Shown: positions 17,565 through 32,000, numbered from the stretch's first letter. The stretch is 32,000 bases of DNA from Cereibacter sphaeroides 2.4.1 (GCF_000012905.2 NC_007493.2:2670001-2702000); one strand, 5' to 3'. Translations and numbers: made by a program. The notes: generated by a model not told the origin, from the sequence alone.

Positions 17565-17590
17565 GGAACCCCGCCTCTGCCGGGCGCGTT
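17565..17590 (+). promoter_or_regulatory. ECF-sigma (EcfG/general-stress type) promoter motif upstream of the TreS-like gene
   Basis: GGAAC (17565-17569), a 17-nt spacer, then CGTT (17587-17590). This is an exact match to the GGAAC-N16/17-CGTT consensus known for alphaproteobacterial EcfG-type sigma factors. It lies 51 nt upstream of ATG 17641. The site is also a dyad (GGAAC-N18-GTTCC). Confidence 0.5.
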
Positions 17591-17640
17591 CCCTTGCGTG
17601 ATCTAGGGAGGTGAACGATGCGGATCTGGGCAGGCTGAGG

Positions 17641-19287
17641 ATGGATATCAGCCGCACGAGCGATGTCTGGTGGAAGAACGCCGTCTTCTATTGTCTCGAT
17701 GTCGAGACCTTTCAGGACAGCAACGGCGACGGGATCGGAGATTTCGCGGGGCTGACCCGGCGGCTCGACCATCTCGACCGGCTGGGGGTGAGCTGCATCT
17801 GGCTGATGCCCTTCTATCCCAGCCCGAACCAGGACGATGGCTACGACATCACCGACTATTACTCCGTCGATCCCCGCCTCGGCACGCTGGGCGATTTCGT
17901 CGAGTTCCTGCGCGCGGCCCATGACCGCGGGATGCGGGTGATCGCGGACCTCGTGGTGAACCACACCTCGCGCGAGCATCCGTGGTTCCAAGCCTCGCGC
18001 GCCGATCCCGATTCGCCCTACCGCGACTGGTATGTCTGGCGCGATGAGAAACCCGACGAGGATGCCGCCTCGCTGGTCTTCCCCGGAGAAGAGAACAGCA
18101 GCTGGACCTGGGACGCGAAGGCGGGGAAATACTATCTCCACCGCTTCTACAGCCACCAGCCGGACCTGAATGTCGAGAACCGCGCGGTGCGCGACGAGAT
18201 CCAGCGGATCGTGGGCTTCTGGCTCCAGCTCGGCCTGTCGGGCTTCCGCGTGGATGCCGTGCCCTTCCTGCTCGAGCAGATGTCGACGGTGGACACGGGC
18301 TTCGCGCCGCACCGCTGGCTGCGCGACCTGCGCGCCTTCATCAACCGCCGGTCGGGCGATGCGGTGCTTCTGGGCGAGGTGAACCTCGACTACCCGGACG
18401 TGCGCCGCTTCTTCGGCGACGAGGATGGCGACGAGCTGCACATGTGCCTCGACTTCAACCTCAATCAGGCGATGGCGCTGGCGCTGGCCCGCGAGGATGC
18501 GGGGCCCATCGTCCACGGGCTGCGCCACATGCCCGAACTCGCGCCCGACGATGGCTGGGCGCATTTCCTGCGCAATCACGACGAATGGTCGCTCGACAAG
18601 CTGACCGAGGCCGAGCGGCAGGAGGTCTTCGCCTCCTTCGGGCCCGATCCCTCGATGCAGCTCTTCGGACGCGGCCTGCGGCGGCGGATGCCCACCATGC
18701 TGAAGGGCAATCCCGACCGGCTGCGGATGGCCTATGCGCTGATGGCCTCGATGCCGGGCTCACCCGTGATCTTCTATGGCGAGGAGATCGGCATGGCGGA
18801 AAATCTCGAGATCCCCGGACGGCTCGCCGTGCGCGCGCCGATGCAGTGGGATGCCGGCCCGCATGGCGGTTTCTCGAACGCGAGCACCGAGGCCCTGCAC
18901 CGGCCCATGGTCTCGGATCCGCAATGGGGACCCGGGAAGGTCAATGCCATCGACCAGCAGGACCGGCCGGACACGATGTTCCACTTCATGGAGCATCTCC
19001 TGCGGCGGCGGCGGGAGTGCCCCGAGATCGCCTTCGGCGAGCATGCCGTGCTGCCGTTTCCCGAGCCCGAGATCTTCGCCATCCGGCACGACTGGGAGGG
19101 CCGTACGCTCATCGCTCTCGCCAATCTCGGCGCAAAGCCGCAGAAGGTGACGCTCACGCTGCCGAAGGCCTCGGGGCTGGGCAGGCTGCGGCCCATCCTC
19201 GGCGAGGGGAAGGTCTCGCTGCGCAAAGACGAGCTGACGGTCGAGCTCGGGGGCTACGGGCTGCGCTGGGTGCGGTTCGAGAGCTGA
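17641..19287 (+). CDS. GH13 alpha-amylase-family enzyme, trehalose synthase (TreS)-like
   Basis: 548 aa from ATG 17641; the track start GTG 17611 is less likely. GH13 blocks are present: WWKNAVFYCLDVETFQDSNGDGIGDFAGL, GMRVIADLVVNHTS and GFRVDAV. The TreS-like string YYLHRFYSHQPDLN is also present. Confidence 0.88.
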   Translation: MDISRTSDVWWKNAVFYCLDVETFQDSNGDGIGDFAGLTRRLDHLDRLGVSCIWLMPFYPSPNQDDGYDITDYYSVDPRLGTLGDFVEFLRAAHDRGMRVIADLVVNHTSREHPWFQASRADPDSPYRDWYVWRDEKPDEDAASLVFPGEENSSWTWDAKAGKYYLHRFYSHQPDLNVENRAVRDEIQRIVGFWLQLGLSGFRVDAVPFLLEQMSTVDTGFAPHRWLRDLRAFINRRSGDAVLLGEVNLDYPDVRRFFGDEDGDELHMCLDFNLNQAMALALAREDAGPIVHGLRHMPELAPDDGWAHFLRNHDEWSLDKLTEAERQEVFASFGPDPSMQLFGRGLRRRMPTMLKGNPDRLRMAYALMASMPGSPVIFYGEEIGMAENLEIPGRLAVRAPMQWDAGPHGGFSNASTEALHRPMVSDPQWGPGKVNAIDQQDRPDTMFHFMEHLLRRRRECPEIAFGEHAVLPFPEPEIFAIRHDWEGRTLIALANLGAKPQKVTLTLPKASGLGRLRPILGEGKVSLRKDELTVELGGYGLRWVRFES

Positions 19288-19313
19288 TCGCGCACCGCTC
19301 ACGCAGGCTTGCG

Positions 19314-19339
19314 GGAACATCCGCCCCGAGCCTCCGGTT
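19314..19339 (+). promoter_or_regulatory. ECF-sigma (EcfG-type) promoter motif upstream of the tiny-ORF pair
   Basis: GGAAC (19314-19318), N16, then CGGTT (19335-19339). This reads as GGAAC-N17-GGTT, one mismatch from CGTT. It lies 42 nt upstream of ATG 19381. Confidence 0.45.
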
Positions 19340-19380
19340 GGCTCCCTGACGGCGAAGCGATGCGCCGAAAGGAGGACCAG

Positions 19381-19608
19381 ATGGCACATGCGGACAAGAA
19401 GCACTTCGGTCAGGGCGTGCAGGGCAAGGGCGATGGCACCGGCGCCATGACCGAGGCCGACACCGCCGAGATCCCGGCCAATGGCGTGCTGTCCAACCGC
19501 GACAAGCAGGGCAGCGAAAGCCGCGGCAAGGACGGAGGCTACGTCAAGACGCAGCAGTATCAGGACCATGCCGGCAACCGCAGGACCGACGACGAGGATC
19601 GCCCATGA
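19381..19608 (+). CDS. Small hydrophilic protein (75 aa), hypothetical
   Basis: AAAGGAGG (19368-19375) lies 5 nt before ATG 19381. Sequence: MAHADKKHFGQGVQGKGDGTGAMTEADTAEIPANGVLSNRDKQGSESRGKDGGYVKTQQYQDHAGNRRTDDEDRP. It has no hydrophobic segment and is Gly/Lys/Asp/Gln-rich. The track ORF 19309-19608 has no ribosome-binding site at its own start. Confidence 0.5.
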   Translation: MAHADKKHFGQGVQGKGDGTGAMTEADTAEIPANGVLSNRDKQGSESRGKDGGYVKTQQYQDHAGNRRTDDEDRP

Positions 19609-19697
19609 CCGCGAAGACGCCCCCCATTCCGCCCGCGAACCGCAGCGACAAGGGCCCCGGCGGCCCGGCCCACGAGGCGCCGCCGGACGGGAAATGA
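19605..19697 (+). CDS. Very small protein (30 aa), hypothetical, translationally coupled
   Basis: ATGA overlap with the previous stop. Sequence: MTAKTPPIPPANRSDKGPGGPAHEAPPDGK. Too short for the ORF track. A strong terminator hairpin follows immediately. Confidence 0.3.
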   Translation: MTAKTPPIPPANRSDKGPGGPAHEAPPDGK

Positions 19698-19702
19698 AAG
19701 CA

Positions 19703-19734
19703 GGCGCGGGCGCGGCATCCTCCGCGCCCGCGCC
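19703..19734 (+). terminator. Strong GC hairpin ending the tiny-ORF transcription unit
   Basis: GGCGCGGGCGCGG (19703-19715) pairs with CCGCGCCCGCGCC (19722-19734). This is a perfect 13-bp stem with a 6-nt loop, starting 6 nt after the stop at 19697. There is no clear T-tract (GCTTCGG follows). Confidence 0.5.
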
Positions 19735-19807
19735 GCTTCGGCAGATGCCCGGTTGCACCGCCGGACAGGTCCGGCCATGCTCGGCTTTCCGCGGCAGGGA
19801 GGACGCC

Positions 19808-20587
19808 ATGATCCGCATCGGCATCGGCGGCTGGGTCTTCGAGCCCTGGCGCGGCACCTTCTACCCCGAGGGGCTGCCGCAGAAGCGCGAGCTCGGCCAC
19901 GCCGCCTCGCGCCTGACCACCCTCGAGATCAACGGCACCTACTACGGGTCGCAGAAGCCCGAGAGCTTTGCGCGATGGCATGACGAGGTGCCCGACGATT
20001 TCGTCTTCGCCCTCAAGGCGCCCCGATTCGCCACCAACCGCAGGAAGCTCGCCGAGGCCGGCGCATCGGTGGACCGCTTCCTGAACAGCGGGATCCTGCG
20101 TCTCGGCGCCAAGCTCGGGCCGATCAACTGGCAGTTCCTGCCGACGAAGGCCTTCGATCCCGAGGATTTCGCGGCCTTCCTCGCGCTCCTGCCGCCCGAG
20201 CACGAGGGCCAACGGTTGCGCCATGCTGTCGAGGTGCGCCACGAGAGCTTCCGCGATCCGGCCTTCGTCGCCCTGGCGGCCGAGCGGAACGTGGCGATCG
20301 TGGTCGAGGGCGACAGCGAGCATCCGCAGATCGCCGACCCCACCGCCGATTTCGTCTATGCCCGCATCATGGGCACCCGCGAGGGTGAAGCGGACGGCTA
20401 TCCGCCGGAGGCCCTCGACCAGTGGGCCGCCCGCGCCCGCGACTGGGAGGCCGGGCGCGCGCCCGAGGGGCTCGCGCGCGTGACCGAGACGCCCGACACG
20501 CCCCGCGACGTGTTCCTCTATGTCATCTCGGGCCACAAGGTCGCGAACCCGGCCGCGGCCGAGGCGCTGCTCGCCCGTCTGCGCTGA
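19808..20587 (+). CDS. DUF72-family protein
   Basis: ATG 19808 (M110 of track ORF 19481-20587) with GGGAGGA 5 nt upstream gives 259 aa. MIRIGIGGWVFEPWRGTFYPEGLPQKRELGHAASRLTTLEINGTYYG is typical of the DUF72/YecE-like family (recognised from memory). Confidence 0.85.
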   Translation: MIRIGIGGWVFEPWRGTFYPEGLPQKRELGHAASRLTTLEINGTYYGSQKPESFARWHDEVPDDFVFALKAPRFATNRRKLAEAGASVDRFLNSGILRLGAKLGPINWQFLPTKAFDPEDFAAFLALLPPEHEGQRLRHAVEVRHESFRDPAFVALAAERNVAIVVEGDSEHPQIADPTADFVYARIMGTREGEADGYPPEALDQWAARARDWEAGRAPEGLARVTETPDTPRDVFLYVISGHKVANPAAAEALLARLR

Positions 20588-20593
20588 CCGGAG

Positions 20594-20640
20594 CGCCCGT
20601 TTCGCGGGCACGGCATCGACTTTCGAGAGATATTTGGGCA
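20594..20640 (-). repeat. Degenerate, inverted copy of the REP-like repeat
   Basis: GATATTTGGGCA (20629-20640) is the reverse complement of the TGCCCAAATATC core of copy 1. A small hairpin GCCCG-tttcg-CGGGC (20595-20609) lies where the GC hairpins would be. It is intergenic, between DUF72 and the ABC binding-protein gene. Confidence 0.3.
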
Positions 20641-20735
20641 CATTGGCCGCGGAGACTCCCGCCGCGCGGGCGGTCCGCTTGCACCTGCCCGCCAGCCGGT
20701 CAGCCTCGCCTGCAACGTCAGATCGGGAGAGAGCC

Positions 20736-21743
20736 ATGTTCCGCGCCTCCGCCGCCCTCGCCGCGGCCTTCACCGTCACCGCCACATGGGCCGGGGCCGA
20801 GACCGCCATGCCCTTCGCGCTCGACTGGAAGTTCGAGGGTCCGGCCGCTCCCTATTTCGTAGCGCTCGACAAGGGCCATTTCGCGGCCGAGGACCTCAAG
20901 GTGGAGATTTCCGAGGGCGCGGGCTCGCTCGATGCGATCCCGAAGGTCGCGACCGGCGCCTTCCCGGTGGGGTTCGCCGACATCAACAGCCTGATGAAGT
21001 TCCTCGACCAGAACCCGGGCGCGCCGGTTATCGCCGCCATGATGATCTACGACAAGCCGCCCTTCGCGGTCGTCGGGCGCAGGTCGCAGGGCGTCGAGGC
21101 CCCGAAGGATCTCGAGGGCCGCAAGCTCGGCGCGCCGCCCCCCGATGGCGCCTGGGCGCAGTTCCCGATCTTCGCCGCCGAGAACGGGCTCGACATGGCC
21201 GCCATCACCGTCGAGCCGGTGGGCTTTCCCGTGCGCGAGCCGATGCTGGCCGAGGGTCGGGTCGATGCGGTGACGGGCTTCTCCTTCTCCTCGGTCCTGA
21301 ACCTCGTGCGGCTGGGCGTGCCCGAGGAGGATCTCTCGACCCTGCTCATGGCCGATCACGGCGTGGCGCTCTACGGCAATGCGATCATCGTCAATACCGA
21401 CTTCGGCAAGGACCACCCCGAGGCGGTGACGGGCTTCCTGCGCGCCGTGGCGAAGGGCTGGAAGGATGCGGTGGCCGAGCCCGGCGCAGCCATCGCGGCG
21501 CTGATCGAGCGCAACCCGGCCGCCGATGCCGCGCTCGAGGAGCGCCGCCTCGGCATGGCGATCCGCGACAATGTCCTGACCGACTGGGTGAAGGCCAACG
21601 GCATGGGCAATATCGACCCCGAGCGCATGGCCCGCGCCATCGAACAGACGAAATCCGTCTACGAGTTCCAGAACGAACCCGACGCCGCCCTCTACTTCGA
21701 TCCGCAGTGGCTGCCCGCCGACGGCAGCCTGACCTTCGAGTGA
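20736..21743 (+). CDS. ABC transporter periplasmic substrate-binding protein (NMT1/THI5-like, NitT/TauT family)
   Basis: ATG 20736 (M73 of track ORF 20520-21743) gives 335 aa with signal peptide MFRASAALAAAFTVTATWAGA. The mature protein starts FALDWKFEGPAAPYFVALDKGHFAAEDLKV, typical of this binding-protein family. Confidence 0.85.
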   Translation: MFRASAALAAAFTVTATWAGAETAMPFALDWKFEGPAAPYFVALDKGHFAAEDLKVEISEGAGSLDAIPKVATGAFPVGFADINSLMKFLDQNPGAPVIAAMMIYDKPPFAVVGRRSQGVEAPKDLEGRKLGAPPPDGAWAQFPIFAAENGLDMAAITVEPVGFPVREPMLAEGRVDAVTGFSFSSVLNLVRLGVPEEDLSTLLMADHGVALYGNAIIVNTDFGKDHPEAVTGFLRAVAKGWKDAVAEPGAAIAALIERNPAADAALEERRLGMAIRDNVLTDWVKANGMGNIDPERMARAIEQTKSVYEFQNEPDAALYFDPQWLPADGSLTFE

Positions 21744-21800
21744 CGTCCGAGTGACCGGGGCGCGGGCCATCGGCCCCGCCCCCTCCCCGACGGGAAGACC

Positions 21801-22694
21801 ATGCCCGACCTCATCGACATCCGCGGCGTGAGCCACGCCTACAGAACGCCCGCCGGCCCGCTGCCGGTGCTGGAGGACCTGAACATCTCGGTCCCCGAGG
21901 CCACCTTCTGCGCGGTCGTGGGCCCCTCGGGCTGCGGCAAGTCCACCCTCACCCGGCTGGTGGCCGGGCTGATGAAGCCCGACCGCGGCGAGGTCTGGCT
22001 GCATGGCGAGCGCGTGACCTCGCCGCGCCGCACGGTGGGCATGGCCTTCCAGAACCCGGTGCTGCTCGAATGGCGCACCATCCTCGAGAACGTGATCCTG
22101 CCGCTCGAGATCGTGGCGCCGCGGATGCCGCGGAAGGAGCGGGTCGAGCGGGCGATGACGCTTCTCGAGATGGTGGGGCTGAAGGGCTTCGAGGCCAAGC
22201 GGCCGAGCCAGCTCTCGGGCGGGATGCGCCAGCGCGCCTCGCTCTGCCGGGCCATCGTGCACCGGCCCGACGTGCTCATCATGGACGAGCCCTTCGGCGC
22301 GCTCGACAATTTCACCCGCGAGGATCTGTGGCAGACCATGCGCGACCTGCGTGCGGCCGAACCCTTCACCTGCGTGCTCATCACCCACGACCTGCGCGAA
22401 AGCGTCTTCCTCGGCGATCAAGTCATCGTGCTGTCGGGCCGCCCGGCCTCCACCCAGTTCATCCTGAACGTGGGCCTGCCCGCCGACCGGCGCATCGACG
22501 TGCTCTATACCCCCGAGGCCACCGACATGCTGCATCTCCTGCGCGACCAGATCCGCATCGCGCAGGGACGCGAGGAACCTGTCGCAGGGACCCGCGGAAG
22601 CCCGGTCTCCACCCCGCGCGGTGAGCAGACCGCTGTCCCGGGACGCGACGGCCCCCCGGCTGCCCCGTTGCCTCGCGACGGCGAGGCCCGCTGA
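21801..22694 (+). CDS. ABC transporter ATP-binding protein (NitT/TauT family)
   Basis: Walker A GPSGCGKST, signature LSGGMRQR and Walker B VLIMDEPFGALD are present. The 297-aa protein includes a ~45-aa Pro/Gly/Arg-rich C-terminal tail. Confidence 0.92.
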   Translation: MPDLIDIRGVSHAYRTPAGPLPVLEDLNISVPEATFCAVVGPSGCGKSTLTRLVAGLMKPDRGEVWLHGERVTSPRRTVGMAFQNPVLLEWRTILENVILPLEIVAPRMPRKERVERAMTLLEMVGLKGFEAKRPSQLSGGMRQRASLCRAIVHRPDVLIMDEPFGALDNFTREDLWQTMRDLRAAEPFTCVLITHDLRESVFLGDQVIVLSGRPASTQFILNVGLPADRRIDVLYTPEATDMLHLLRDQIRIAQGREEPVAGTRGSPVSTPRGEQTAVPGRDGPPAAPLPRDGEAR

Positions 22695-23458
22695 TGGATC
22701 TCCTGCGCAAGATCGGCGTGCCGCTCGCCGCGATCCTGATCTTCCTCGCGCTCTGGGAGGGGATCGTCTGGTGGAACGGCTGGCCCAACTACAAGATGGC
22801 CTCGCCCTCGGACCTGCCCCCCGCCTTTGCCCGCTACTGGGAGCTCTTTCTCACCATGGGCTGGCAGACGCTCTGGCGCACGGTGGCCGGTCTCGGCCTC
22901 GCCGTGATCTTCGGCACCCTCCTCGGCATGGTGATGGGCTTCTCGCGCATCGCCCGCGACGGGCTCTATCCGCTGCTCGTGGGCTTCAACGCCATCCCCA
23001 AGGCCACGCTCGTGCCGGTGCTTGCGCTGATCTTCATCGGCCAGCACGATTTCAACACCGTGCTCATGGCCTTCCTGATCTCCTTCTTCCCCATCGCCGT
23101 GTCGGTGGGCATTGGCCTCTCGACGCTCGAGCCGGAATATCGCGACATCCTCCGCTCGCTCGGGGCCTCGAAGCTCACGATCTTCTGGAAGATCGCCCTG
23201 CCCAAGACCCTGCCCGAGTTCTTCGGCGCGCTGAAGGTCTCGGTCACGCTCGCCTTCATCGGCACCAACCTGGTCGAGATCGTGAGCCCGCACGGCCGCG
23301 GCCTCGGCGCGCTCTTCAAGTCGGGCGAGACCAACGGCGACTATCCCCTGATGTTCGCCGTCCTCATCGCGCTCGCCTTCCTCGGCATCCTGCTCTACTA
23401 TGCCGTGGTCGCGCTCGAGCGGATCTTCGCCGGATGGGCCGAGCGTCCGCAGCACTGA
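22694..23458 (+). CDS. ABC transporter permease
   Basis: 254 aa and multi-pass hydrophobic. It has the conserved cytoplasmic loop GASKLTIFWKIALPKTLPEFFGALK. TGATG overlap with the ATPase stop. Confidence 0.9.
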   Translation: MDLLRKIGVPLAAILIFLALWEGIVWWNGWPNYKMASPSDLPPAFARYWELFLTMGWQTLWRTVAGLGLAVIFGTLLGMVMGFSRIARDGLYPLLVGFNAIPKATLVPVLALIFIGQHDFNTVLMAFLISFFPIAVSVGIGLSTLEPEYRDILRSLGASKLTIFWKIALPKTLPEFFGALKVSVTLAFIGTNLVEIVSPHGRGLGALFKSGETNGDYPLMFAVLIALAFLGILLYYAVVALERIFAGWAERPQH

Positions 23459-23566
23459 AATTTCACGAAGCGCGAATGGCGGGGCCGCCCCATACCGGCC
23501 TGTTGCCTTTTCGCCGGATCGCGTCTCAAACTCGACCGAACGGTCAGGAATCACGGCAGGGAGAAG

Positions 23567-24949
23567 ATGATGGAAGGCTTGGCGCAGGCGAACGACCTCA
23601 GCGAGGTGATTGAGGCGGACCGCGCACATATGTGGCACCACCTGAGCCAGCACAAACAATACGAGACGGTCGATCCCCGGATCATCGTCGAGGGCAAGGG
23701 GATGCGGGTCTGGGATGCGGCCGGCAAGGAGCATCTCGACGCGGTCTCGGGCGGCGTCTGGACGGTGAACGTGGGCTACGGCCGCGAAAGCATCGCCAAT
23801 GCAGTGCGCGACCAGCTCATCAAGATGAACTATTTCGCCCATTCCGCAGGCTCGATCCCGGCCTCGCGCTTCTCCAAACGCCTGATCGAGAAGATGCCGG
23901 GCCTCTCGCGCGTCTACTATTCGAACTCGGGCTCCGAGGCGAACGAGAAGGTCTTCAAGATGGTGCGCCAGATCTCGCACCGGCACCATGGCGGCAAGAA
24001 GGGCAAGATCCTCTTCCGCGAGCGCGACTATCACGGCACCACCATCACCGCACTCGCCACCTCTGGCCAGCCGCAGCGCGCCGAGCAGTACGGGCCGCTC
24101 ACGCCGGGCTTCGTGATGGTCCCGCACTGCCTCGAATACCGCAAGCAGTGGGACGTCGAGAATTACGGCGAGCGCGCCGCCGACGCCATCGAGGAGGTGA
24201 TCCTGCGCGAGGGCCCCGATACGATCGGCGCGCTCTGCCTCGAGCCGGTAACGGCCGGCGGCGGCGTGATCGTGCCGCCCGCGGGCTACTGGGAGCGGGT
24301 GCAGGAGATCTGCCGGAAATACGACATCCTCCTCCATATCGACGAGGTGGTCTGCGGGCTCGGCCGCACCGGCACCTGGTTCGGCTATCAGAACTTCGGC
24401 GTGAAACCCGATTTCGTCACCATGGCCAAGGGCGTGGCCTCGGGCTATGCGGCCATCTCCTGCACGGTCACGACCGAGGCCGTCTTCGACATGTTCAAGG
24501 ACGATCCCTCCGATCCGATGAGCTACTTCCGCGACATCTCCACCTTCGGCGGCTGCACCGCGGGCCCGGTCGCGGCGCTCGAGAACATGCGGATCATCGA
24601 GGACGAGGGTCTGCTCGAGAACACGCTGAAGATGGGCGCGCGCGTGGTCGAGAACCTCTCCGCGCTGCAGGAGAAGCACGCCGTCATCGGCGACGTGCGC
24701 GGCAAGGGTCTGTTCTGCGGGGCCGAGCTCGTGGCCGACCGCGCCACGAAGGAGCCCATGGACGAGAAGCGCGTGGCGGCCGTGGTGGCCGACGTGATGG
24801 CGCAGGGCGTCATCATCGGCATGACGAACCGCAGCCTGCCGGGCTTCAACAACACGCTCTGCCTCTCGCCCGCGCTGATCGCCACGCCCGACGACATCGA
24901 CCAGATCACGGACGCCATCGACCGCGCCCTGACCCGCGTCTTCGGCTGA
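23567..24949 (+). CDS. Class-III (omega) PLP-dependent aminotransferase
   Basis: 460 aa with SNSGSEANE, HIDEVVCGLGRTGTWFG and the Lys context FVTMAKGVASGY. GGGAGAAG lies upstream of the ATG. Confidence 0.92.
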   Translation: MMEGLAQANDLSEVIEADRAHMWHHLSQHKQYETVDPRIIVEGKGMRVWDAAGKEHLDAVSGGVWTVNVGYGRESIANAVRDQLIKMNYFAHSAGSIPASRFSKRLIEKMPGLSRVYYSNSGSEANEKVFKMVRQISHRHHGGKKGKILFRERDYHGTTITALATSGQPQRAEQYGPLTPGFVMVPHCLEYRKQWDVENYGERAADAIEEVILREGPDTIGALCLEPVTAGGGVIVPPAGYWERVQEICRKYDILLHIDEVVCGLGRTGTWFGYQNFGVKPDFVTMAKGVASGYAAISCTVTTEAVFDMFKDDPSDPMSYFRDISTFGGCTAGPVAALENMRIIEDEGLLENTLKMGARVVENLSALQEKHAVIGDVRGKGLFCGAELVADRATKEPMDEKRVAAVVADVMAQGVIIGMTNRSLPGFNNTLCLSPALIATPDDIDQITDAIDRALTRVFG

Positions 24950-24956
24950 TCCCACC

Positions 24957-24980
24957 GGCGCCCGCCCCCCGGCGGGCGCC
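24957..24980 (+). terminator. GC hairpin after the aminotransferase gene
   Basis: GGCGCCCGCC-cccc-GGCGGGCGCC, a perfect 10-bp stem starting 8 nt after the stop. No T-tract follows. Confidence 0.45.
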
Positions 24981-25259
24981 CCCCCTCCTGCGCCGGGTCC
25001 CGGTCTCCGGGGCCGCACCGGAGCGCCCGCCCGCCGTGGCTGCCTCGCCCGACGCCTCGCCCTCCGCACCCACGCCGCACCATCGAGCGGGCCCTCGGCC
25101 CTCTCGGCAGCCACCGGGCCGACAAGGGCGGGCCCGCGGGCTCTCTCCGCCCGCCCTGCGACCCGATGTCAGATTCCGCTCACCCTAGGTCGCTTTGTGA
25201 TGTGCCCCGCAGGCCCCGGCGCTATAGCCCCTTCGGAAAGACCACCGCGAGGGAGCCCC

Positions 25260-26144
25260 ATGCCGAAGTTCGTCCTCACCGTCACCTGCCCGACCCGCCG
25301 GGGCATCGTCGCCGCCATCTCGACCTTCCTCGCCGACCATGGCTGCAACATCACCGATTCGGCCCAGTTCGACGATCAGGAAACCGGGCGCTTCTTCATG
25401 CGCGTGGGCTTCCAGTCCGAGACCGGCGCCACGCTCGACGGGCTCACCGCGGATTTCGCCGCCGTGGGCGAGACGCTCGAGGCCGACTGGCAGATCTTCG
25501 ACAGCGCCAGCAAGATCAAGGTCCTGCTGATGGTGTCGAACTTCGGCCACTGCCTCAACGACCTGCTCTACCGCTGGCGCATCGGCGCCCTGCCGATCGA
25601 GATCGTGGGCGTCGTCTCGAACCACCTGACCTACCAGAAGGTCGTCGTGAACCACGACATCCCCTTCCATCTCATCAAGGTCACCAAGGACAACAAGCCC
25701 GAGGCCGAGGCCCGCCTCATGGCGCTGGTCGACGAGACCGGGGCCGAGCTCGTCGTGCTCGCCCGCTACATGCAGGTCCTGTCGGATGCCTTCTGCGCCC
25801 GCATGTCGGGCCGGATCATCAACATCCACCACTCGTTCCTGCCCTCCTTCAAGGGCGCGAACCCCTACAAGCAGGCCTACCAGCGCGGCGTGAAGCTGAT
25901 CGGCGCCACGGCGCATTACGTCACCGCCGATCTCGACGAGGGCCCGATCATCGAGCAGGACACGGTGCGCATCACCCACGCCCAGAGCCCGGACGATTAT
26001 GTGAGCCTCGGCCGCGACGTCGAGGCCTCGGTCCTCTCCCGCGCGATCCACGCCCATATCCACCACCGGGTCTTCCTCAACGGCAACAAGACCGTGGTCT
26101 TCCCGGCGTCCCCCGGCGCCCACGCCTCCGAACGGATGGGCTGA
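25260..26144 (+). CDS. purU: Formyltetrahydrofolate deformylase
   Basis: ATG 25260 (M22 of track ORF 25197-26144) gives 294 aa. It has an ACT-like N-terminus (FVLTVTCPTRRGIVAAISTFLADHGCNI) and a formyltransferase core (SNFGHCLNDLLYRW; IINIHHSFLPSFKGANPY). Confidence 0.95.
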   Translation: MPKFVLTVTCPTRRGIVAAISTFLADHGCNITDSAQFDDQETGRFFMRVGFQSETGATLDGLTADFAAVGETLEADWQIFDSASKIKVLLMVSNFGHCLNDLLYRWRIGALPIEIVGVVSNHLTYQKVVVNHDIPFHLIKVTKDNKPEAEARLMALVDETGAELVVLARYMQVLSDAFCARMSGRIINIHHSFLPSFKGANPYKQAYQRGVKLIGATAHYVTADLDEGPIIEQDTVRITHAQSPDDYVSLGRDVEASVLSRAIHAHIHHRVFLNGNKTVVFPASPGAHASERMG

Positions 26145-26149
26145 GCCCC

Positions 26150-26199
26150 GCTTTCATTCTGGCCGAAATATCCCGGGGGTGCGGGGGCAGCGCCCCCGC
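26150..26199 (+). repeat. REP-like intergenic repeat, copy 2
   Basis: GCTTTCATTCTGGCCGAAATATCCCGGGGG is followed by the hairpin GCGGGGGC-agc-GCCCCCGC (26181-26199). It lies between the convergent purU and MFS genes, the same context as copy 1. Confidence 0.6.
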
Positions 26200-26214
26200 T
26201 CCTTCCCGTGACGC

Positions 26215-27840
26215 TCAGGTCAGATCCTCGGGCTTCAGCGGCAGATCGTCGTGCAAGGGCACCGTCTGGCGCTCGATCATCCGGCGCACCCGCGGCTTGC
26301 CCGGCCCTGCGTGCAGCGCGAGCAGCCGGTCCGTCACCTCGGCATCCGCCTTCGTCCGCCGCTCGTGGTGGCGCAGATATTCCGCCCAGGTCGCGACATG
26401 GTAGCTTTCGGCCCAGATCCCCGGCCGCTCCAGATCGCGCAACAGCACCCACTGCCGCGCCCCGTCCCGGATCCGGATCCGGCGCCGGTCCGCCATGGCG
26501 GCGAGGAACTCGTCCACATTCTCGGGCACCACGTCATATTCGACCGTCACCATGATCGGCCCCGAGCGCATGCGCAGGTCCACCGGCAGGCTCGGCTCAA
26601 CGAACCGCCCCAGCGGATCGAGATCCTGCATCCCGAAGGCCGGCAGCGGCATCCGCAGCCCCACCAGCGCCCCCAGCACGAGGACACCGGCCGCCCCGAA
26701 CAGGGCCCCGTCCACGCCGCCCGCCTCGGCCGCCTGCCCCCAGAGGAAGCTGCCCGCCGCCATCCCGCCGAAAGTGGCGGTCTGATAGAGGGCCAGCGCC
26801 CGCCCCACGACCCAGCGCGGCGTGGCGAGCTGCACGCTCACATTGAACAGCGACAAGGCCAGCACCCAGGCCGCCCCCGCCGGCAGGAGCATGAGCCCCG
26901 ACAGCCACAGCGCGCGCGACAGGCCGAGCCCGGTCAGCGCCAGCGCGAAGATCACGAAGCCCGCCCGCACGATGGTCTCGTTCTGGAACCGCTCGCGCAG
27001 GCGCGCGCCGGCGAAGGCGCCGCCGATGGCGCCCACCCCGAAACAGCCCAGAAGCACGCCATAGGTGAAGGCGCCCCCGCCCACGAGGTCGCGCGCGACG
27101 ACAGGCAGCAGCGCAAGCAGGCTCACCGCCGCAAGGCCGAAGAGGAAGCCGCGGAAGAGCACCTTGAGCAGGATGGGCGACATCGAGACATAGCGCAGGC
27201 CCGCGGCCACGGCCGATCCCAGCGTCTCGCGCGGCAGCCGCCGCGGCGCATAGTCGGGCCGCCAGAGAAAGAGCGTGAGGACCAGCGGCAGATAGCTCGC
27301 CGCATTGATCGCGAAGGCCGCCGCCGCGCCACCCGCCGCTACGATGATCCCGCCCAGCGCGGGGCCCACGCTCCGCATCAGGTTGAAGCCCATGCTGTTC
27401 AGCGCGACCGCCGACGGCAGGTCCTTGCGGGGCACGATGTCGCCGACCGAGGCCTGCCACGAAGGGTTGTGCAGCGCCACGCCCGCGCCGATCAGGAAGG
27501 TGAAGGTCAGCAAGAGCCACGGCGTCAGCAGATCCGCGAAGGCCGCCAGCGCCAGCGCCGCCGAGGCCGTCAGCATGAAGAGCTGCGCCGTCAGCATCAG
27601 GCGCCGCCGGTTGAGGCTGTCGGCCAGCGCGCCCGAGGGCAGCGAGAAGAGCATGATCGGCAGGGTCGTCGAGGCCTGCACCAGCGCCACCATCCCGGCG
27701 GAATGGGTGAGCTCGGTCATCATCCAGCCTGCGCCCACCGCCTGCACCAGCCCGCCGAAGTTCGAGACGATGCTCGCCATCCAGAGGTTGCGGTAGGTGG
27801 GCAGGCGGAAGGGCGCGAGGGGAGAGACACGGTCGGGCAA
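26215..27840 (-). CDS. MFS transporter (12-TM core) with a ~135-aa soluble C-terminal domain
   Basis: Part of track ORF 26215-28020. The likely start is TTG 27840, with AGAAGG 7 nt upstream; ATG 27780 is the alternative. The hydrophobic core starts FRLPTYRNLWMASIVSNFGGLVQAVGAGWMM. The C-terminal tail (IMVTVEYDVVPENVDEFLAAMADRRRIRIRDGARQWVLLRDLERPGIWAESYHVATWAEYLRHHERRT) looks like a small alpha/beta (ABM/Dabb-like) domain. Confidence 0.85.
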   Translation of the reverse strand: MPDRVSPLAPFRLPTYRNLWMASIVSNFGGLVQAVGAGWMMTELTHSAGMVALVQASTTLPIMLFSLPSGALADSLNRRRLMLTAQLFMLTASAALALAAFADLLTPWLLLTFTFLIGAGVALHNPSWQASVGDIVPRKDLPSAVALNSMGFNLMRSVGPALGGIIVAAGGAAAAFAINAASYLPLVLTLFLWRPDYAPRRLPRETLGSAVAAGLRYVSMSPILLKVLFRGFLFGLAAVSLLALLPVVARDLVGGGAFTYGVLLGCFGVGAIGGAFAGARLRERFQNETIVRAGFVIFALALTGLGLSRALWLSGLMLLPAGAAWVLALSLFNVSVQLATPRWVVGRALALYQTATFGGMAAGSFLWGQAAEAGGVDGALFGAAGVLVLGALVGLRMPLPAFGMQDLDPLGRFVEPSLPVDLRMRSGPIMVTVEYDVVPENVDEFLAAMADRRRIRIRDGARQWVLLRDLERPGIWAESYHVATWAEYLRHHERRTKADAEVTDRLLALHAGPGKPRVRRMIERQTVPLHDDLPLKPEDLT

Positions 27841-27951
27841 GGGAGAACCTTCTGTCGGGCCGGCTGCCCCATGGGATAGGTCGCGCGAGGGCGGCTGACA
27901 AGGGAGGGCCCCTCCGGAGCCCCGCAGGCGCCCTCGGCGCGCCCGCGATCC

Positions 27952-27977
27952 AACGCCGGGAACCCTCGGCCCGTTCC
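27952..27977 (-). promoter_or_regulatory. ECF-sigma (EcfG-type) promoter motif directed toward the MFS gene
   Basis: The minus strand reads GGAAC (27977->27973), N16, then GCGTT (27956->27952), so CGTT sits after a 17-nt spacer, an exact consensus match. It lies 112 nt upstream of TTG 27840. Confidence 0.45.
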
Positions 27978-27984
27978 GCCGGTT
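27959..27984 (+). promoter_or_regulatory. ECF-sigma (EcfG-type) promoter motif directed toward the topoisomerase IB gene
   Basis: GGAAC (27959-27963), N16, then CGGTT (27980-27984). It interdigitates with the minus-strand motif: each -35 lies inside the other's spacer. It lies 155 nt upstream of GTG 28139. Confidence 0.45.
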
Positions 27985-28138
27985 GAGCGCGGCGACAGGC
28001 AACCGCGGGTGCGGGGCCATGTCCGGGACGGGGCGGACGGGTCCGACCCTCCCGGCGCGGCAACGACCCGCAGACGGTCATCTTCGCCGGACGTCGGGGC
28101 GGCAGAGGCCGCAGGCCGGATCACAGGAGGGCTGCAAG

Positions 28139-29173
28139 GTGAAGGATGGCTGCGTTCTGGTCGAGATGTCGGACGGCAGCGAGGCCACCGTGCCGCGCGG
28201 CCTCGTCTATGTCACCGATGCCGAGCCGGGCATCACCCGGCGGCGCTGCGGGCGCGGCTTCGTCTTCCGCGGCCCCGACGGCAGGCTTCTGGACCGCGCC
28301 GAGCGCGCACGGATCCTGCGCCTCGGGGTTCCGCCCGCCTACGAGAAGGTGTGGATCTGCCCGCTCGAGAACGGCCATCTGCAGGCCACCGGGTTCGATG
28401 CGCGCGGGCGCAAGCAGTATCGCTACCACCCCGACTGGGGCAGCTGGCGGTCGCAGGCGAAATACGCCCTCCTGCCGGCCTTCGGAGAGGCGCTGCCCCG
28501 CCTGCGCCGCCGCGTGGCCCGCGACCTCAAGGCCGAGGCGGGCGAGCTCGCCTTCTCGCTCGCGGCCCTCACCATGCTGATCGACCGGACCTTCCTGCGC
28601 GTGGGCAGCTCGGCCTATGCCGAGGAGAACAAGACCTTCGGCGCCACCACGCTTCTGGCGCGCCATGTGAAGCTCAAGGACGGCGAGGTGCGGCTCGACT
28701 TCCGCGCCAAGGGCGGCAAGCGCGTGCGTCAGGTGCTGAAGGACCGCCGCCTGCACCGCATCCTGCAGGAGATCGAGGACCTGCCGGGCCGCAACCTCTT
28801 CACCTGGATCGACGAGGAGGGCCAGGTGCGGCGCGTGGCCTCGCACCATGTGAACGACTATCTGGCCGAGGCCACGGGCCTTGCCGGCGCCTCGGCCAAG
28901 ACCTTCCGCACCTGGGGCGGCTCGCTCGCTGCCTTCGCCGTGGCCCGGGCGACCGAGGGCAAGCTCACCGTGAAGATGATGGCCGAAGGCGCGGCCGAGC
29001 GGCTGCACAACACGCCGACGATCAGCCGCACCTCCTACATCCATCCCCGGATCCTCGGCCTCGCGGATCTGAAGCCCGACGAGCGGCTCGCGCAGCTCGA
29101 GGCGGTCCAGCCCGCCGACCTGCCCGACCTGCGCAGCGACGAGCGCCGGATGCTCGGCTTCCTGCTGGGCTGA
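28139..29173 (+). CDS. DNA topoisomerase IB (poxvirus/eukaryote-like bacterial TopIB)
   Basis: GTG 28139 has AGGAGGG 7 nt upstream and gives 344 aa. Blocks typical of bacterial TopIB are present: GFVFRGPDGRLL, GFDARGRKQYRYHPDW, TFGATTLLARHV, RLDFRAKGGK, SAKTFRTWGGS. The active-site Tyr context is HNTPTISRTSYIHP. Confidence 0.9.
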   Translation: MKDGCVLVEMSDGSEATVPRGLVYVTDAEPGITRRRCGRGFVFRGPDGRLLDRAERARILRLGVPPAYEKVWICPLENGHLQATGFDARGRKQYRYHPDWGSWRSQAKYALLPAFGEALPRLRRRVARDLKAEAGELAFSLAALTMLIDRTFLRVGSSAYAEENKTFGATTLLARHVKLKDGEVRLDFRAKGGKRVRQVLKDRRLHRILQEIEDLPGRNLFTWIDEEGQVRRVASHHVNDYLAEATGLAGASAKTFRTWGGSLAAFAVARATEGKLTVKMMAEGAAERLHNTPTISRTSYIHPRILGLADLKPDERLAQLEAVQPADLPDLRSDERRMLGFLLG

Positions 29174-29248
29174 CCCCCGGCACAGACGCCGCCGGCACCG
29201 ATCAGCAAGCGCCCAGATGAGCGCTCGGGCGGACATTCATCCGATGGC

Positions 29249-29289
29249 GAAAAACAATTGCGCCGCGCCGGGGAGCGACGGCGCGGCGC
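29249..29289 (-). terminator. Rho-independent terminator of the DUF3008 gene
   Basis: GCGCCGCGCC (29260-29269) pairs with GGCGCGGCGC (29280-29289), a perfect 10-bp stem with a 10-nt loop. On the minus strand it is followed by AATTGTTTTTC. It starts 19 nt after the stop. Confidence 0.65.
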
Positions 29290-29307
29290 AGGCCTCGCTC
29301 GCGCGGA

Positions 29308-29493
29308 TCAGCCGGATTTATGCTCCGGCTTGCCCTTCCGCTCGGTCGCGGCCATTTCCTTCAATTCCTTCTCCGACATGGAGTCCTCCATGCTGCGGGA
29401 GGCTCCCTTCAGATCGCTCTTCTTCGTGTCGCCGCGCTTGGCCGACAGGGCGGCTCCGGCGGCTTTCTGCTGGGCCTTGGACGTCGCTGGCAT
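29308..29493 (-). CDS. DUF3008-family small protein (61 aa)
   Basis: MPATSKAQQKAAGAALSAKRGDTKKSDLKGASRSMEDSMSEKELKEMAATERKGKPEHKSG. The KAQQ.AAGAALSAKRG..KKS.LKGAS string is what I remember for DUF3008. GAGG lies 6 nt upstream of the ATG, and the gene has its own terminator. Confidence 0.7.
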   Translation of the reverse strand: MPATSKAQQKAAGAALSAKRGDTKKSDLKGASRSMEDSMSEKELKEMAATERKGKPEHKSG

Positions 29494-29557
29494 CGCACAC
29501 CTCGCAGGCTCGGATCGTCAGGCTGCCGGGCAGCCCGGCCTCATCCTCTGCGCAGAA

Positions 29558-29582
29558 AACCGCGCCGCGCGCGCCCGGTTCC
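29558..29582 (-). promoter_or_regulatory. ECF-sigma (EcfG-type)-like promoter motif toward DUF3008 (spacer one nt shorter)
   Basis: The minus strand reads GGAAC (29582->29578), N15, then CGGTTTT (from 29562 downward), i.e. GGAAC-N16-GGTT. It lies about 65 nt upstream of ATG 29493. Confidence 0.3.
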
Positions 29583-29590
29583 CGCGGCGG

Positions 29591-29611
29591 CTCGCCTTTC
29601 GGGCGAGTTTT
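29591..29611 (+). terminator. Small terminator-like hairpin plus T-tract between the divergent promoters
   Basis: CTCGCC (29591-29596), tttcg loop, GGCGAG (29602-29607), then TTTT (29608-29611). The T-tract is the beginning of 19-nt repeat copy B. Confidence 0.3.
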
Positions 29612-29626
29612 CCGTGACAGGCAGGT
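29608..29626 (+). repeat. 19-nt direct repeat, copy B (TTTTCCGTGACAGGCAGGT)
   Basis: 17 of 19 positions match 17462-17480, in the same orientation. It lies 44 nt upstream of the GGAAC at 29670. Confidence 0.6.
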
Positions 29627-29669
29627 TTCCGGCCCCGCTCGGCGGGATGCCGCCGACATGAGCCCAGCC

Positions 29670-29695
29670 GGAACCTCCCCGAGGCCAGCGCGGTT
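29670..29695 (+). promoter_or_regulatory. ECF-sigma (EcfG-type) promoter motif upstream of the DUF4142 gene
   Basis: GGAAC (29670-29674), N16, then CGGTT (29691-29695). This is the same architecture as the sites at 19314 and 27959. It lies 54 nt upstream of ATG 29749. Confidence 0.45.
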
Positions 29696-29748
29696 GATCC
29701 CCTGTCCAGCGCGACGATGATGCGATCCGAAGTTCCCGGAGTCGAAAG

Positions 29749-30273
29749 ATGAGACCTGTTCCGCTCGCCCTCGCGGCTCTGCTCCTCGCCACGCCCGTGG
29801 CCTTCTCGCAATCCGACGCGCCGCCGCCGCCGCTGGTGGTGGTCGATGACGCGCAGGTCTTTGCCGGCATGGCCGTCTCCTCGGCGCTCTTCGGCGTCGA
29901 GGCGAGCGAAACCGCCCTCTCCCGCACCCGGAACGAGACGGTGCGCGCCTTCGCCGAGAAGGTCCTGCAGGAACGGCGCGAGACGGCGGAGCGGCTGGTC
30001 AAGGCCGCCGAGGCCGATGCGCTGCCGATCACGCCGCGCATGTCGCCGCGCCACGAGGCCGAGGCGCAGTCCCTGCGCGGGGCGGATGACCAGATGTTCG
30101 ACGACCTGTATCTTGCAGGCCAGCGACGCGCCATCGACGAGGAGGTCACGCTCTATCAGGGCTTCGCCACCGCAGGTCAGGAAAGCGCGCTGCGCGAGAC
30201 GGCGGGCGAGCTTCTGCCGCGTATGGTGGCCGGACAGGAACAGGTCCGCGCCCTTGCCGCGCCGCGCGGCTGA
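29749..30273 (+). CDS. DUF4142-family exported protein
   Basis: 174 aa with signal peptide MRPVPLALAALLLATPVAFS and GGAG 7 nt upstream. The helical repeats (ETALSRTRNETVRAFAEKVLQERRE .. DDLYLAGQRRAIDEEVTLYQGF .. LRETAGELLPRM) match my memory of DUF4142. Confidence 0.72.
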   Translation: MRPVPLALAALLLATPVAFSQSDAPPPPLVVVDDAQVFAGMAVSSALFGVEASETALSRTRNETVRAFAEKVLQERRETAERLVKAAEADALPITPRMSPRHEAEAQSLRGADDQMFDDLYLAGQRRAIDEEVTLYQGFATAGQESALRETAGELLPRMVAGQEQVRALAAPRG

Positions 30274-30290
30274 CCTCTCCCTCGGATGAT

Positions 30291-30319
30291 CGCTCCGGCC
30301 GCGAGACGCAGCCGGAGCG
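30291..30319. terminator. Hairpin between the convergent DUF4142 and otsA genes
   Basis: CGCTCCGGC (30291-30299) pairs with GCCGGAGCG (30311-30319), a 9-bp stem with an 11-nt loop. There is no T-tract on either side. Confidence 0.35.
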
Positions 30320-30325
30320 CGCCCG

Positions 30326-31738
30326 TCAATCGCTCTCTCGGGTGAGGGCACCGTTGTCCTCGGGCGCCTCGTTCAGGGCGGCGAGGAACGTGCGGCACCA
30401 CCAGAGCACATCGTGGGACTCGAGATGATCCATCATGCGCCGCCAGCGCGCGATCCGCTCGTCGAGCGGCATCGAGAGCGCACGGCCGATGGCCCCCGCC
30501 GTCTGCTCGGTGTCGTAGGGGTTGATGAAGATGGCCCCGTCCAGTTCGCGCGCGGCGCCCGCGAAGCGCGAGAGGATGAGGACGCCCGGATCGGCCGGAT
30601 CCTGCGAGGCCACATATTCCTTGGCCACCAGGTTCATCCCGTCGCGGAGCGGCGTGACGAGCCCCACTTTCGCCAGCCGGTAGAGGCCCGCCAGCACAGG
30701 CCGGGTGAGCGACTGGTTCACATAGCGGATGGGCACCCACTCGATGGTGCCGTGCGCGCCGTTCACCCGGCCGCAATGCGACTCCACCTGCCCCTGCATC
30801 TCGAGATACTCGGGCACGTCCGAGCGCGAGTGGGGCGCCACCTGCAGCAGCGTGACCTTGCCCGCCTGATCGGGATTGCGCATCAGATACCGCTCGAACG
30901 CGTCGATCCGCGCGGCGATGCCCTTGGAATAGTCGAGCCGGTCAACCCCGATGATGAGCGAACTGCCATGCAGGCTCTGCTGCATGTCGGTGACCAGATC
31001 GAGCCCGTCCGTCTTGGCCGCGAGCCGCGCGAAATCCCCGGTCTCGATGCCGATGGGGAAGGCCGCGGCCGCCACCTCCTTGTCGAAGGCGCGGAGCCAG
31101 CCCGGCGTCGACCAGTCGCCCCAGCCCTCGCGGCGCAGACAACCCACGAAATTGTCGAGATCGTAGTCGGTCTGGAACCCCACGAGGTCGTAGGCCGCAA
31201 GGCCCCGCATGATGATCTCGTAGACCGGCAGAGCGGTCAGGATGTCGGCCGGGGGCCATGGAATGTGGAGGAAGAAGCCGATCCGGTTGCGCACGCCGCG
31301 CTTGCGCAGCTCCTGCGCCAGCGGGATCAGGTGGTAATCATGCACCCAGATCACGTCGTCGGGCTCGAGCATCGGCACCAGACGGTCGGCGAACAGGCGA
31401 TTGACGCGGAAATAGCCCGCCATCTCCTGCCGCGCATATTCGGCCAGATCGAGACGGCAGTGGAAGATCGGCCAGAGCACCCGGTTGGCGAAGCCGTTGT
31501 AATATTCGTCGAGGTCCGCCTGCGAAAGGTCGGTCAGCACATAGCTGATCTTGTCCTGCTCCAGCGTGGTCAGGCCCTGCGGCTCCTCCTCGCCGGTCGA
31601 GCGGCCCGACCAGCCCATCCAGATCCCGCCGTTCTTGCGCAGCGCGGCATGGACGGCGACGGCCAGCCCGCCGGGCGGCGGGTTGCCGTTCTCGTCCGGC
31701 AGCGGCACGCGGTTCGAGACGACGACGAGACGACTCAT
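30326..31738 (-). CDS. otsA: Alpha,alpha-trehalose-phosphate synthase (GT20)
   Basis: 470 aa. MSRLVVVSNRVP, WVHDYHLIPLA, GFFLHIPWP, VDRLDYSKGI and LVTPLRDGMNLVAKEY are canonical OtsA blocks. ATGA overlap with otsB. Confidence 0.95.
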   Translation of the reverse strand: MSRLVVVSNRVPLPDENGNPPPGGLAVAVHAALRKNGGIWMGWSGRSTGEEEPQGLTTLEQDKISYVLTDLSQADLDEYYNGFANRVLWPIFHCRLDLAEYARQEMAGYFRVNRLFADRLVPMLEPDDVIWVHDYHLIPLAQELRKRGVRNRIGFFLHIPWPPADILTALPVYEIIMRGLAAYDLVGFQTDYDLDNFVGCLRREGWGDWSTPGWLRAFDKEVAAAAFPIGIETGDFARLAAKTDGLDLVTDMQQSLHGSSLIIGVDRLDYSKGIAARIDAFERYLMRNPDQAGKVTLLQVAPHSRSDVPEYLEMQGQVESHCGRVNGAHGTIEWVPIRYVNQSLTRPVLAGLYRLAKVGLVTPLRDGMNLVAKEYVASQDPADPGVLILSRFAGAARELDGAIFINPYDTEQTAGAIGRALSMPLDERIARWRRMMDHLESHDVLWWCRTFLAALNEAPEDNGALTRESD

Positions 31739-32000
31739 GCGCCGAGCTCCGCCACGAGGTCGCGGAGCGCCTGCGGCGAGGCGAGCCGCGCCCGGGCCAG
31801 CGTCGGCGCCTCGGTCTCGCAGATCCGCACCGAGAGGCCGCCGCAGGCATTGACCACCCGGAACATCTCCTCGTCGGTCACGTCGTCGCCTATCGCAACG
31901 GGCCTCCGCCCGGCGAAGGGCGGCTCCGTCAGAAAGGCCTCGAGCGCCGTGCCCTTGTTGGCCGAGGCCGGCCGCAGTTCCACCACCATCTTGCCGTGCT
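31735..32000 (-). CDS. otsB: Trehalose-phosphatase, 3' part only (gene continues beyond the window)
   Basis: The C-terminal HAD-phosphatase segment reads VELRPASANKGTALEAFLTEPPFAGRRPVAIGDDVTDEEMF. The gene is directly coupled to otsA. The N-terminus is off-window. Confidence 0.85.
   Translation of the reverse strand, partial: HGKMVVELRPASANKGTALEAFLTEPPFAGRRPVAIGDDVTDEEMFRVVNACGGLSVRICETEAPTLARARLASPQALRDLVAELGA

Follow-up and report, generated by a model that had tools for sequence, protein, structure and literature searches.

What reads the six GGAAC...GTT motifs that lie between positions 17,565 and 32,000 of a 32,000-nt stretch of the Cereibacter sphaeroides 2.4.1 chromosome (NC_007493.2:2670001-2702000, here called the window)? 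The motifs resemble promoters of EcfG, an ECF15-type extracytoplasmic function (ECF) sigma factor of Alphaproteobacteria, for which the consensus GGAAC-N16/17-CGTT has been published. The original prediction, made from this DNA alone, took them for a general stress response island next to the trehalose genes otsBA. Our analysis makes it likely, from the sequence and its conservation, that the six motifs are promoters read by the EcfG protein of C. sphaeroides (the orthologue of RSP_1272). They would serve the genes for a TreS-like enzyme of glycoside hydrolase family 13 (GH13), a 75-aa protein, an MFS_3 transporter, topoisomerase IB (topIB), a DUF3008 protein and a DUF4142 protein. Motifs of this class, their regulatory system and EcfG promoters that work in two directions are already known; what is new is the set of predicted targets in C. 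sphaeroides. The sites are as follows.

17565-17590, plus strand: predicted EcfG-type promoter of the GH13 gene, GGAAC-N17-CGTT, an exact match; GTT 50 nt from the ATG at 17641
19314-19339, plus strand: predicted EcfG-type promoter of the 75-aa open reading frame (ORF), GGAAC-N17-GGTT; GTT 41 nt from the ATG at 19381
27952-27977, minus strand: predicted EcfG-type promoter of MFS_3, GGAAC-N17-CGTT; GTT 111 nt from the TTG at 27840
27959-27984, plus strand: predicted EcfG-type promoter of topIB, GGAAC-N17-GGTT; GTT 154 nt from the GTG at 28139
29558-29582, minus strand: predicted EcfG-type promoter of DUF3008, GGAAC-N16-GGTT; GTT 64 nt from the ATG at 29493
29670-29695, plus strand: predicted EcfG-type promoter of DUF4142, GGAAC-N17-GGTT; GTT 53 nt from the ATG at 29749

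Are there more such motifs than a G+C-rich genome would produce by itself? An exact pattern search recovered all six sites at the positions and on the strands originally given. GGAAC-N18-GTT occurs six times in the window, at 17565 (plus), as the mirror of that site at 17567-17592 (minus), and at 19314 (plus), 27952-27977 (minus), 27959 (plus) and 29670 (plus), against an expected 0.17 and a maximum of two in 100 dinucleotide-preserving shuffles. It is correct, then, that five of the six sites have exactly 18 nt between GGAAC and GTT (the sixth, 29558-29582 on the minus strand, has N17) and that no other pentamer has a GTT at that spacing except the mirror of 17565. Widening the spacer range to N15-19 adds two matches, namely 29558-29582 (minus) at N17 and 21643-21669 (minus) at N19. 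The strict form GGAAC-N16/17-(C/G)GTT gives seven matches, all of them intergenic: five of the gene-directed sites with N17-(C/G)GTT, one with N16-GGTT, and the mirror of the 17565 site. On both strands together the window holds 46 GGAAC pentamers (37 genic, 9 intergenic), and (C/G)GTT follows at N16-17 in 7 of the 9 intergenic pentamers vs 0 of the 37 genic ones (Fisher p = 7e-7). Besides the seven in sites we count 39 pentamers, 37 of them genic, which agrees with the earlier estimate of 35-40. All six sites are co-oriented with the gene downstream and, as had been claimed, aim at a nearby start codon, with 41-154 nt between GTT and start.

The N19 match at 21643-21669 lies antisense within the gene for an NMT1-type binding protein. 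It is most likely a chance match, kept among C. sphaeroides strains only because it falls in coding sequence.

The promoters were compared with those of C. johrii, Rhodobacter sp. NSM, C. azotoformans and C. sediminicola (loci L001, L002, L008, L111 and L112), whose coding DNA is 82-95% identical to that of the window. All six sites retain GGAAC and (C/G)GTT in three or four genomes of this group while spacers and flanks change, and one promoter may have N16 in one species and N17 in another, a difference that EcfG tolerates. Rhodobacter sp. NSM (L111) and C. sediminicola (L112) share the two boxes of the GH13 site, around spacers that have diverged. The remaining sites were followed in L001, L002 and L008. 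There, the 19314 site retains GGGAACATC and CCGGTT around a variable spacer that is 1 nt shorter, and the MFS_3 promoter core CAACGCCGGGAACC...CCCGTTCCGCCGGTTGA is nearly invariant. The DUF3008 motif stands at the same place with unrelated spacers, and CGGAAC and GTTGA are retained at the DUF4142 site with diverged spacers. The start region of topIB is conserved in the same alignment, and the 75-aa protein and its Shine-Dalgarno sequence are conserved at 80-96% identity. That the matches are functionless by-products of chance or of the composition of a 70% G+C genome could still be argued from the motif specifying only 8-9 bases and from the single intragenic match at N19. However, no shuffle reaches six matches, every strict match is intergenic and gene-directed, and the boxes outlast their spacers between species whose DNA is about 82-88% identical, so that this explanation is effectively refuted.

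A scan of the promoter regions for the sigma-70 consensus gave no matches. Rhodobacter housekeeping promoters depart from the Escherichia coli consensus (PMC7703639), and because of this the negative scan carries little weight.

Does the species have the sigma factor and its switch? C. sphaeroides, named R. sphaeroides in the literature cited here, encodes PhyR (RSP_1274), a NepR-like protein (RSP_1273), sigma-EcfG (RSP_1272) and a histidine kinase (RSP_1271), and a transcription start lies upstream of RSP_1273 (Li et al. 2018, PMC5830050). A genome with no EcfG-like sigma factor would have refuted the original prediction; that refutation fails for the species, which has phyR-nepR-ecfG, RSP_1274 to RSP_1272. 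No targets of PhyR-NepR-EcfG in R. sphaeroides were found reported in the searchable literature, and the only paper found there to mention RSP_1272 defines no regulon. We located the phyR locus with a reverse transcription PCR primer of PMC5830050 on a segment of a 3-Mb contig (L075), in which seven primers match exactly. Its PhyR scores 368 bits against NF006623 (cutoff 240) and its ECF sigma factor 358 bits against NF009198 (cutoff 270); a 68-aa NepR candidate had no NCBIfam match. The 102-nt phyR/nepR intergenic region contains GGGAACCGAACGCCGGTGCCCGCGTTCGGTTCC, which reads as GGAAC-N16-CGTT in both directions (L075 3322-3353) and so presents overlapping divergent sites, one toward nepR-ecfG and one toward phyR. 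Judged by their sequence, these sites are an autoregulatory signature of EcfG, and they tie the motif to this sigma factor within the species.

The L075 segment also carries a third palindromic EcfG-type site, GGAACGTGGAAATTCGGCCGCGGTTCC, at 1248-1274 (both strands), about 2 kb from phyR. On one side of it a Crp/Fnr-family gene has its 3' end, and on the other the next gene on the minus strand starts, its ATG about 60 nt downstream.

How do the sites compare with EcfG promoters elsewhere? The Sphingomonas melonis consensus is GGAAC-N17-20-GTT, and the top EcfG-dependent genes of S. melonis Fr1 include 'Topoisomerase IB', 'Glycosidases' and a trehalose cluster, each with the motif (PMC6599016). 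For DUF4142, DUF3008, MFS_3 and the 75-aa protein, no link to EcfG was found in the literature. The window sites share boxes and spacing with the EcfG (ECF15) promoters that are governed by the PhyR-NepR-EcfG switch in Methylobacterium, Caulobacter (SigT), Sinorhizobium (RpoE2), S. melonis and Erythrobacter litoralis. They resemble these also in standing about 40-150 nt from start codons and in recurring at the species' own phyR/nepR-ecfG region. The classes of target overlap too, taking in topoisomerase IB, a GH13 glycosidase, trehalose genes and small uncharacterised proteins. The differences are that five of the six window sites have the longer N17 spacing, that EcfG dependence is here predicted from sequence, and that the phyR mutant of C. 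sphaeroides shows phenotypes only with membrane stress and with UV in darkness (PMC5830050).

A near-identical pattern is found at actinobacterial promoters, but the host of the window is an alphaproteobacterium. Promoters of the SigH/SigR/SigE type of ECF sigma factor in Actinobacteria read GGAAT/GGAAC-N18-GTT. Actinobacteria are not known to have PhyR-type regulators, and the motif studied here co-occurs with such regulators.

We next see from a survey of topIB that its pairing with the motif extends well outside Cereibacter. Sixty-three topIB loci from a species-representative genome collection were searched for the motif on the coding strand, up to 300 nt ahead of the gene, with a background of 0.027 motifs per 320 nt. 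Among Alphaproteobacteria the motif stands upstream of 16 of 28 loci (for Rhodobacterales, with five genera, 14 of 15), and it precedes none of the 35 others (Gemmatimonadota, Beta- and Gammaproteobacteria, Bacteroidota and others). A Rhizobiaceae metagenome-assembled genome and Rhizobium sp. Q54 each have an ecfG-like sigma gene directly before topIB; the motif stands ahead of the sigma gene, and the two genes probably form an operon. The stretches concerned are:

L010, 8040-9684: ecfG-like gene and topIB, Rhizobiaceae genome
L020, 9326-10876: ecfG-like gene and topIB, Rhizobiaceae genome

In Sulfitobacter (L012 3400-17300) the phyR-ecfG locus is 5 kb from topIB, and ten motif matches fall in a 21-kb region. 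This region is much denser in motifs than the cluster in the window. Behind motif matches in these Rhizobiaceae and Sulfitobacter loci stand ORFs for PhyR, ECF sigma factors, and DUF892, PRC-barrel and hemerythrin proteins.

Several observations weigh against assigning the six promoters to EcfG. Generic features of ECF promoters include a -35 box with AAC and a -10 box with CGT, and several ECF groups have GGAAC/CGTT-like boxes in common. The spacers of five of the six sites (N17) are 1 nt longer than those of the N16 autoregulatory sites, the phyR locus was examined in a C. sphaeroides assembly (L075) other than the window's own genome, and the predicted leaders are long, at 154 nt for topIB and 111 nt for MFS_3 vs about 10-60 nt in other Rhodobacterales. 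A phyR mutant of R. sphaeroides copes normally with salt, heat and oxidative stress and is sensitive only to sodium dodecyl sulfate with EDTA, ethanol, polymyxin, carbonyl cyanide m-chlorophenylhydrazone, and UV in the dark. RSP_1272 mRNA rises only under membrane stress, and the authors assign the cascade only a specialised role in this species (PMC5830050). While the EcfG-type promoter reading is supported, the 'general stress' label of the original prediction is therefore doubtful, given this narrow range of sensitivities. The phenotype also fits an osmotic or desiccation theme poorly, although an effect could be hidden by redundancy among trehalose pathways and by other promoters.

The same observations could mean that the motifs are real promoters read by another C. 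sphaeroides ECF sigma factor of similar specificity. The generic AAC and CGT boxes, the extra nucleotide in the window spacers relative to the phyR/nepR sites and the missing salt and oxidative phenotypes all suit that explanation, and the EcfG sigma factor of L075 also scores against several other ECF models. We nevertheless hold it to be unlikely. The same motif occurs at the species' own phyR/nepR-ecfG region, counterparts of some of the genes (topoisomerase IB, a glycosidase, trehalose genes) are EcfG-dependent in S. melonis, and the topIB motif is, like EcfG, confined to Alphaproteobacteria, where topIB is linked to ecfG or phyR in other genera. The argument from spacer length is countered by the N16/N17 switching among Cereibacter orthologues of one promoter.

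Could the motifs instead be operators, bound as inverted repeats (GGAAC...GTTCC) by a dimeric transcription factor? Inverted repeats are present at 27959 (GGAAC-N9-GTTCC), at 17565 (GGAAC-N18-GTTCC) and at phyR/nepR. On the other hand, the half-site spacings of 9, 18 and 22 nt are all different and ill-suited to one dimer, the sites at 19314, 29582 and 29670 are not palindromic, the GH13 site of C. sediminicola retains only the gene-directed reading, and the topIB site is unidirectional in other Rhodobacterales. EcfG motifs are moreover known to be nearly palindromic, and this has been connected with promoters that work in both directions (10.1101/641647). Taken together, this makes operators highly improbable.

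The predicted MFS_3 and topIB promoters overlap back to back, each with its -35 box inside the spacer of the other, and for that reason only one holoenzyme at a time would be accommodated in the region. Divergent EcfG promoters, the reading we prefer for this overlap, have been considered before. Staron et al. are said to have put forward in 2009 the hypothesis of a palindromic bidirectional EcfG promoter. In E. litoralis, a palindromic GGAAC-N17-GTTCC drives nepR-ecfG and the divergent kinase gene gsrP (10.1101/641647). By analogy, this bidirectional site is a precedent for the overlapping divergent arrangements predicted at MFS_3/topIB and phyR/nepR, which likewise place opposed motifs on one short stretch, and the GH13 site reads GGAAC-N18-GTTCC in a similar way. 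Unlike the E. litoralis palindrome, the MFS_3 and topIB motifs are offset rather than one shared palindrome. The GH13 site differs in that its reverse reading points antisense toward dapF, is lost in C. sediminicola and is probably unused.

At the GH13 site, it is the -10 region CGTTCC that lets the minus strand also read as a site (17567-17592). This mirror is retained in Rhodobacter sp. NSM; transcription from it would run antisense via tRNA-Lys. The mirror is probably a nonfunctional by-product of CGTTCC, because C. sediminicola retains only the gene-directed reading. The GH13 transcript would carry a six-codon upstream ORF, MRIWAG-stop, which has its own GGGAGG Shine-Dalgarno sequence and whose stop lies 1 nt ahead of the GH13 ATG; that ATG has no well-spaced Shine-Dalgarno sequence of its own. 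Counterparts are found in Rhodobacter sp. NSM (MRIWTG-stop, L111) and C. sediminicola (MRVRSG-stop, L112). From this layout, coupled translation or a leader peptide may be suspected. The motif also precedes GH13 homologues of Devosia and Chelativorans, in Chelativorans by way of an upstream co-oriented gene.

The DUF3008 and DUF4142 promoters also diverge, with their two -35 boxes about 90 nt apart, and a terminator-like hairpin at 29259-29290 follows DUF3008. An ATG at 27872 was considered as the start of MFS_3 and rejected, being out of frame and not conserved; the TTG at 27840 fits the gene calls.

Other Alphaproteobacteria suggest, by analogy, how the six units would be switched on. PhyR, phosphorylated once inducing conditions set in, would bind the anti-sigma factor NepR and so free EcfG. 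The sigma factor would recognise the -35 GGAAC and the -10 (C/G)GTT set 16-17 nt apart, and EcfG-RNA polymerase would then transcribe GH13 (behind its six-codon leader ORF), the 75-aa ORF, MFS_3, topIB, DUF3008 and DUF4142. We infer the sigma dependence, the transcription start points and the inducing signals of the six units from the sequence.

Is otsBA merely a neighbour of these units, as the original prediction had it? The genes are indeed adjacent to the sites, but they are probably a target themselves. On the otsB strand, GTGAAC-N17-CGTT lies 33 nt before the ATG, outside the window (equivalent to about 32517). The element falls at 12770-12830 in L065 (window-equivalent about 32518-32578), at about 14400-14460 in L001 and at about 14717-14780 in L002, and it is conserved in three genomes, including C. 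johrii and Rhodobacter sp. NSM. The opposite strand offers a perfect GGAAC-N18-GTT, present in C. sphaeroides and C. johrii only. This plus-strand match, beyond the window and antisense to an M20 peptidase gene, was rejected as a promoter. The otsB-directed reading is preferred, being the only one of the two that Rhodobacter sp. NSM retains. Thus otsBA is probably under the same sigma factor via a near-consensus TGAAC-N17-CGTT promoter, through which it would most likely join the six units.

What kind of neighbourhood do the promoters occupy? The gene map was built from Pfam and NCBIfam scans, gene calls on identical public contigs and a tRNA scan, and positions 19749-32000 of the window are identical to a European Nucleotide Archive assembly contig. 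The features are:

16404-17381, minus strand: dapF
17387-17461, plus strand: tRNA-Lys (tRNA scan)
17619-17639, plus strand: six-codon upstream ORF MRIWAG-stop (sequence reading)
17641-19287, plus strand: GH13 alpha-amylase-family enzyme, TreS-like, 548 aa (Pfam Alpha-amylase, 4e-86)
19381-19608, plus strand: hydrophilic ORF, 75 aa (translation)
19808-20587, plus strand: DUF72
20736-26144, plus strand: NMT1-type ABC transporter (three genes), class-III aminotransferase, purU
26215-27840, minus strand: MFS_3 (EntS-like) transporter, 541 aa, TTG start (Pfam MFS_3, 5e-202; C. sphaeroides gene calls)
28139-29173, plus strand: bacterial topoisomerase IB, 344 aa, GTG start after AGGAGG (Pfam Top1B_N_bact and Topoisom_I; gene calls)
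29308-29493, minus strand: DUF3008 small protein, 61 aa (Pfam DUF3008, 7e-31)
29749-30273, plus strand: DUF4142 protein, 174 aa (Pfam DUF4142, 3.5e-28)
30326-31738, minus strand: otsA (Pfam Glyco_transf_20; gene calls in L065)
31735 to the window end (32000), minus strand: otsB, 3' part only in the window (gene calls in L065)

The Pfam results agree with the gene identities first proposed. The GH13 enzyme is TreS-like but falls under the cutoff of the TreS equivalog (549 bits against TIGR02456 treS_nterm, cutoff 678 bits), and its protein is 100% identical to an 'alpha-amylase family protein [Cereibacter sphaeroides]'. The GH13 and DUF4142 proteins are identical to C. sphaeroides proteins, for example on the KD131 chromosome (CP001150.1), and the identical DUF4142 protein is found in many C. 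sphaeroides genomes. The window DNA is 93-95% identical to that of C. johrii, and the topoisomerase IB proteins of the two are 98% identical. These identities place the window on the chromosome of C. sphaeroides. The 75-aa protein has no Pfam or NCBIfam family, even at E<=10; its ORF is annotated as a 70-aa gene in L111 and L112.

In a mobile sense the word 'island' did not stand up to these comparisons. The order dapF, tRNA-Lys, GH13, small ORF, DUF72 onward is common to other Cereibacter species, and G+C content at third codon positions is uniformly high throughout the region. A mobile or horizontally acquired island at tRNA-Lys was rejected on account of the conserved synteny, and what we have is a conserved chromosomal cluster for which 'island' can mean only a cluster of promoters. 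Nor does the cluster run unbroken through the span, since the stretch with the ABC-transporter genes, the aminotransferase gene and purU is free of the motif. The motif-free metabolic genes at 19.8-26.1 kb are probably outside the regulon.

Some further details were seen in the intergenic regions. Between the 75-aa ORF and DUF72 there is a perfect 13-bp all-G/C hairpin (19703-19734), terminator-like on the minus strand, which probably also insulates the transcript of the 75-aa ORF from DUF72. In C. sediminicola (L112 4958-5330), two additional small genes (60 and 62 aa), absent from the window, lie between the 70-aa homologue and DUF72. An 18-nt repeat, TTTTCC(C/G)TGACAGGCAGG, occurs twice in the window on the plus strand, at 17462-17479 and 29608-29625, with 0.01 expected. 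Each copy sits directly 3' of a stem (the 3' end of tRNA-Lys and a hairpin at 29591-29607, respectively) and 60-100 nt upstream of an EcfG-type -35 box. The copies are in insertions absent from Rhodobacter sp. NSM and from C. azotoformans or C. sediminicola.

Finally, what would the cluster mean for the organism? R. sphaeroides is a major model organism, and the cluster supplies six to seven conserved candidate EcfG promoters, with candidate explanations for the UV and membrane-stress phenotypes of the phyR mutant. The comparisons suggest that the EcfG system widely takes in topoisomerase IB among Alphaproteobacteria; what this bacterial enzyme does physiologically is poorly understood. Taking one step further, topIB, which is apparently joined to ecfG-paralogue operons in some Rhizobiaceae, may be part of the ancestral core of the EcfG regulon of Alphaproteobacteria, with its lost induction accounting for the light-independent UV sensitivity of the phyR mutant, and MFS_3, DUF4142 and DUF3008 accounting for the membrane phenotype. 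We offer this joint proposal tentatively, and regard it as possible but on balance doubtful. If true, the EcfG response of Rhodobacter would be a programme of DNA damage, envelope and trehalose functions rather than a 'minor' system.

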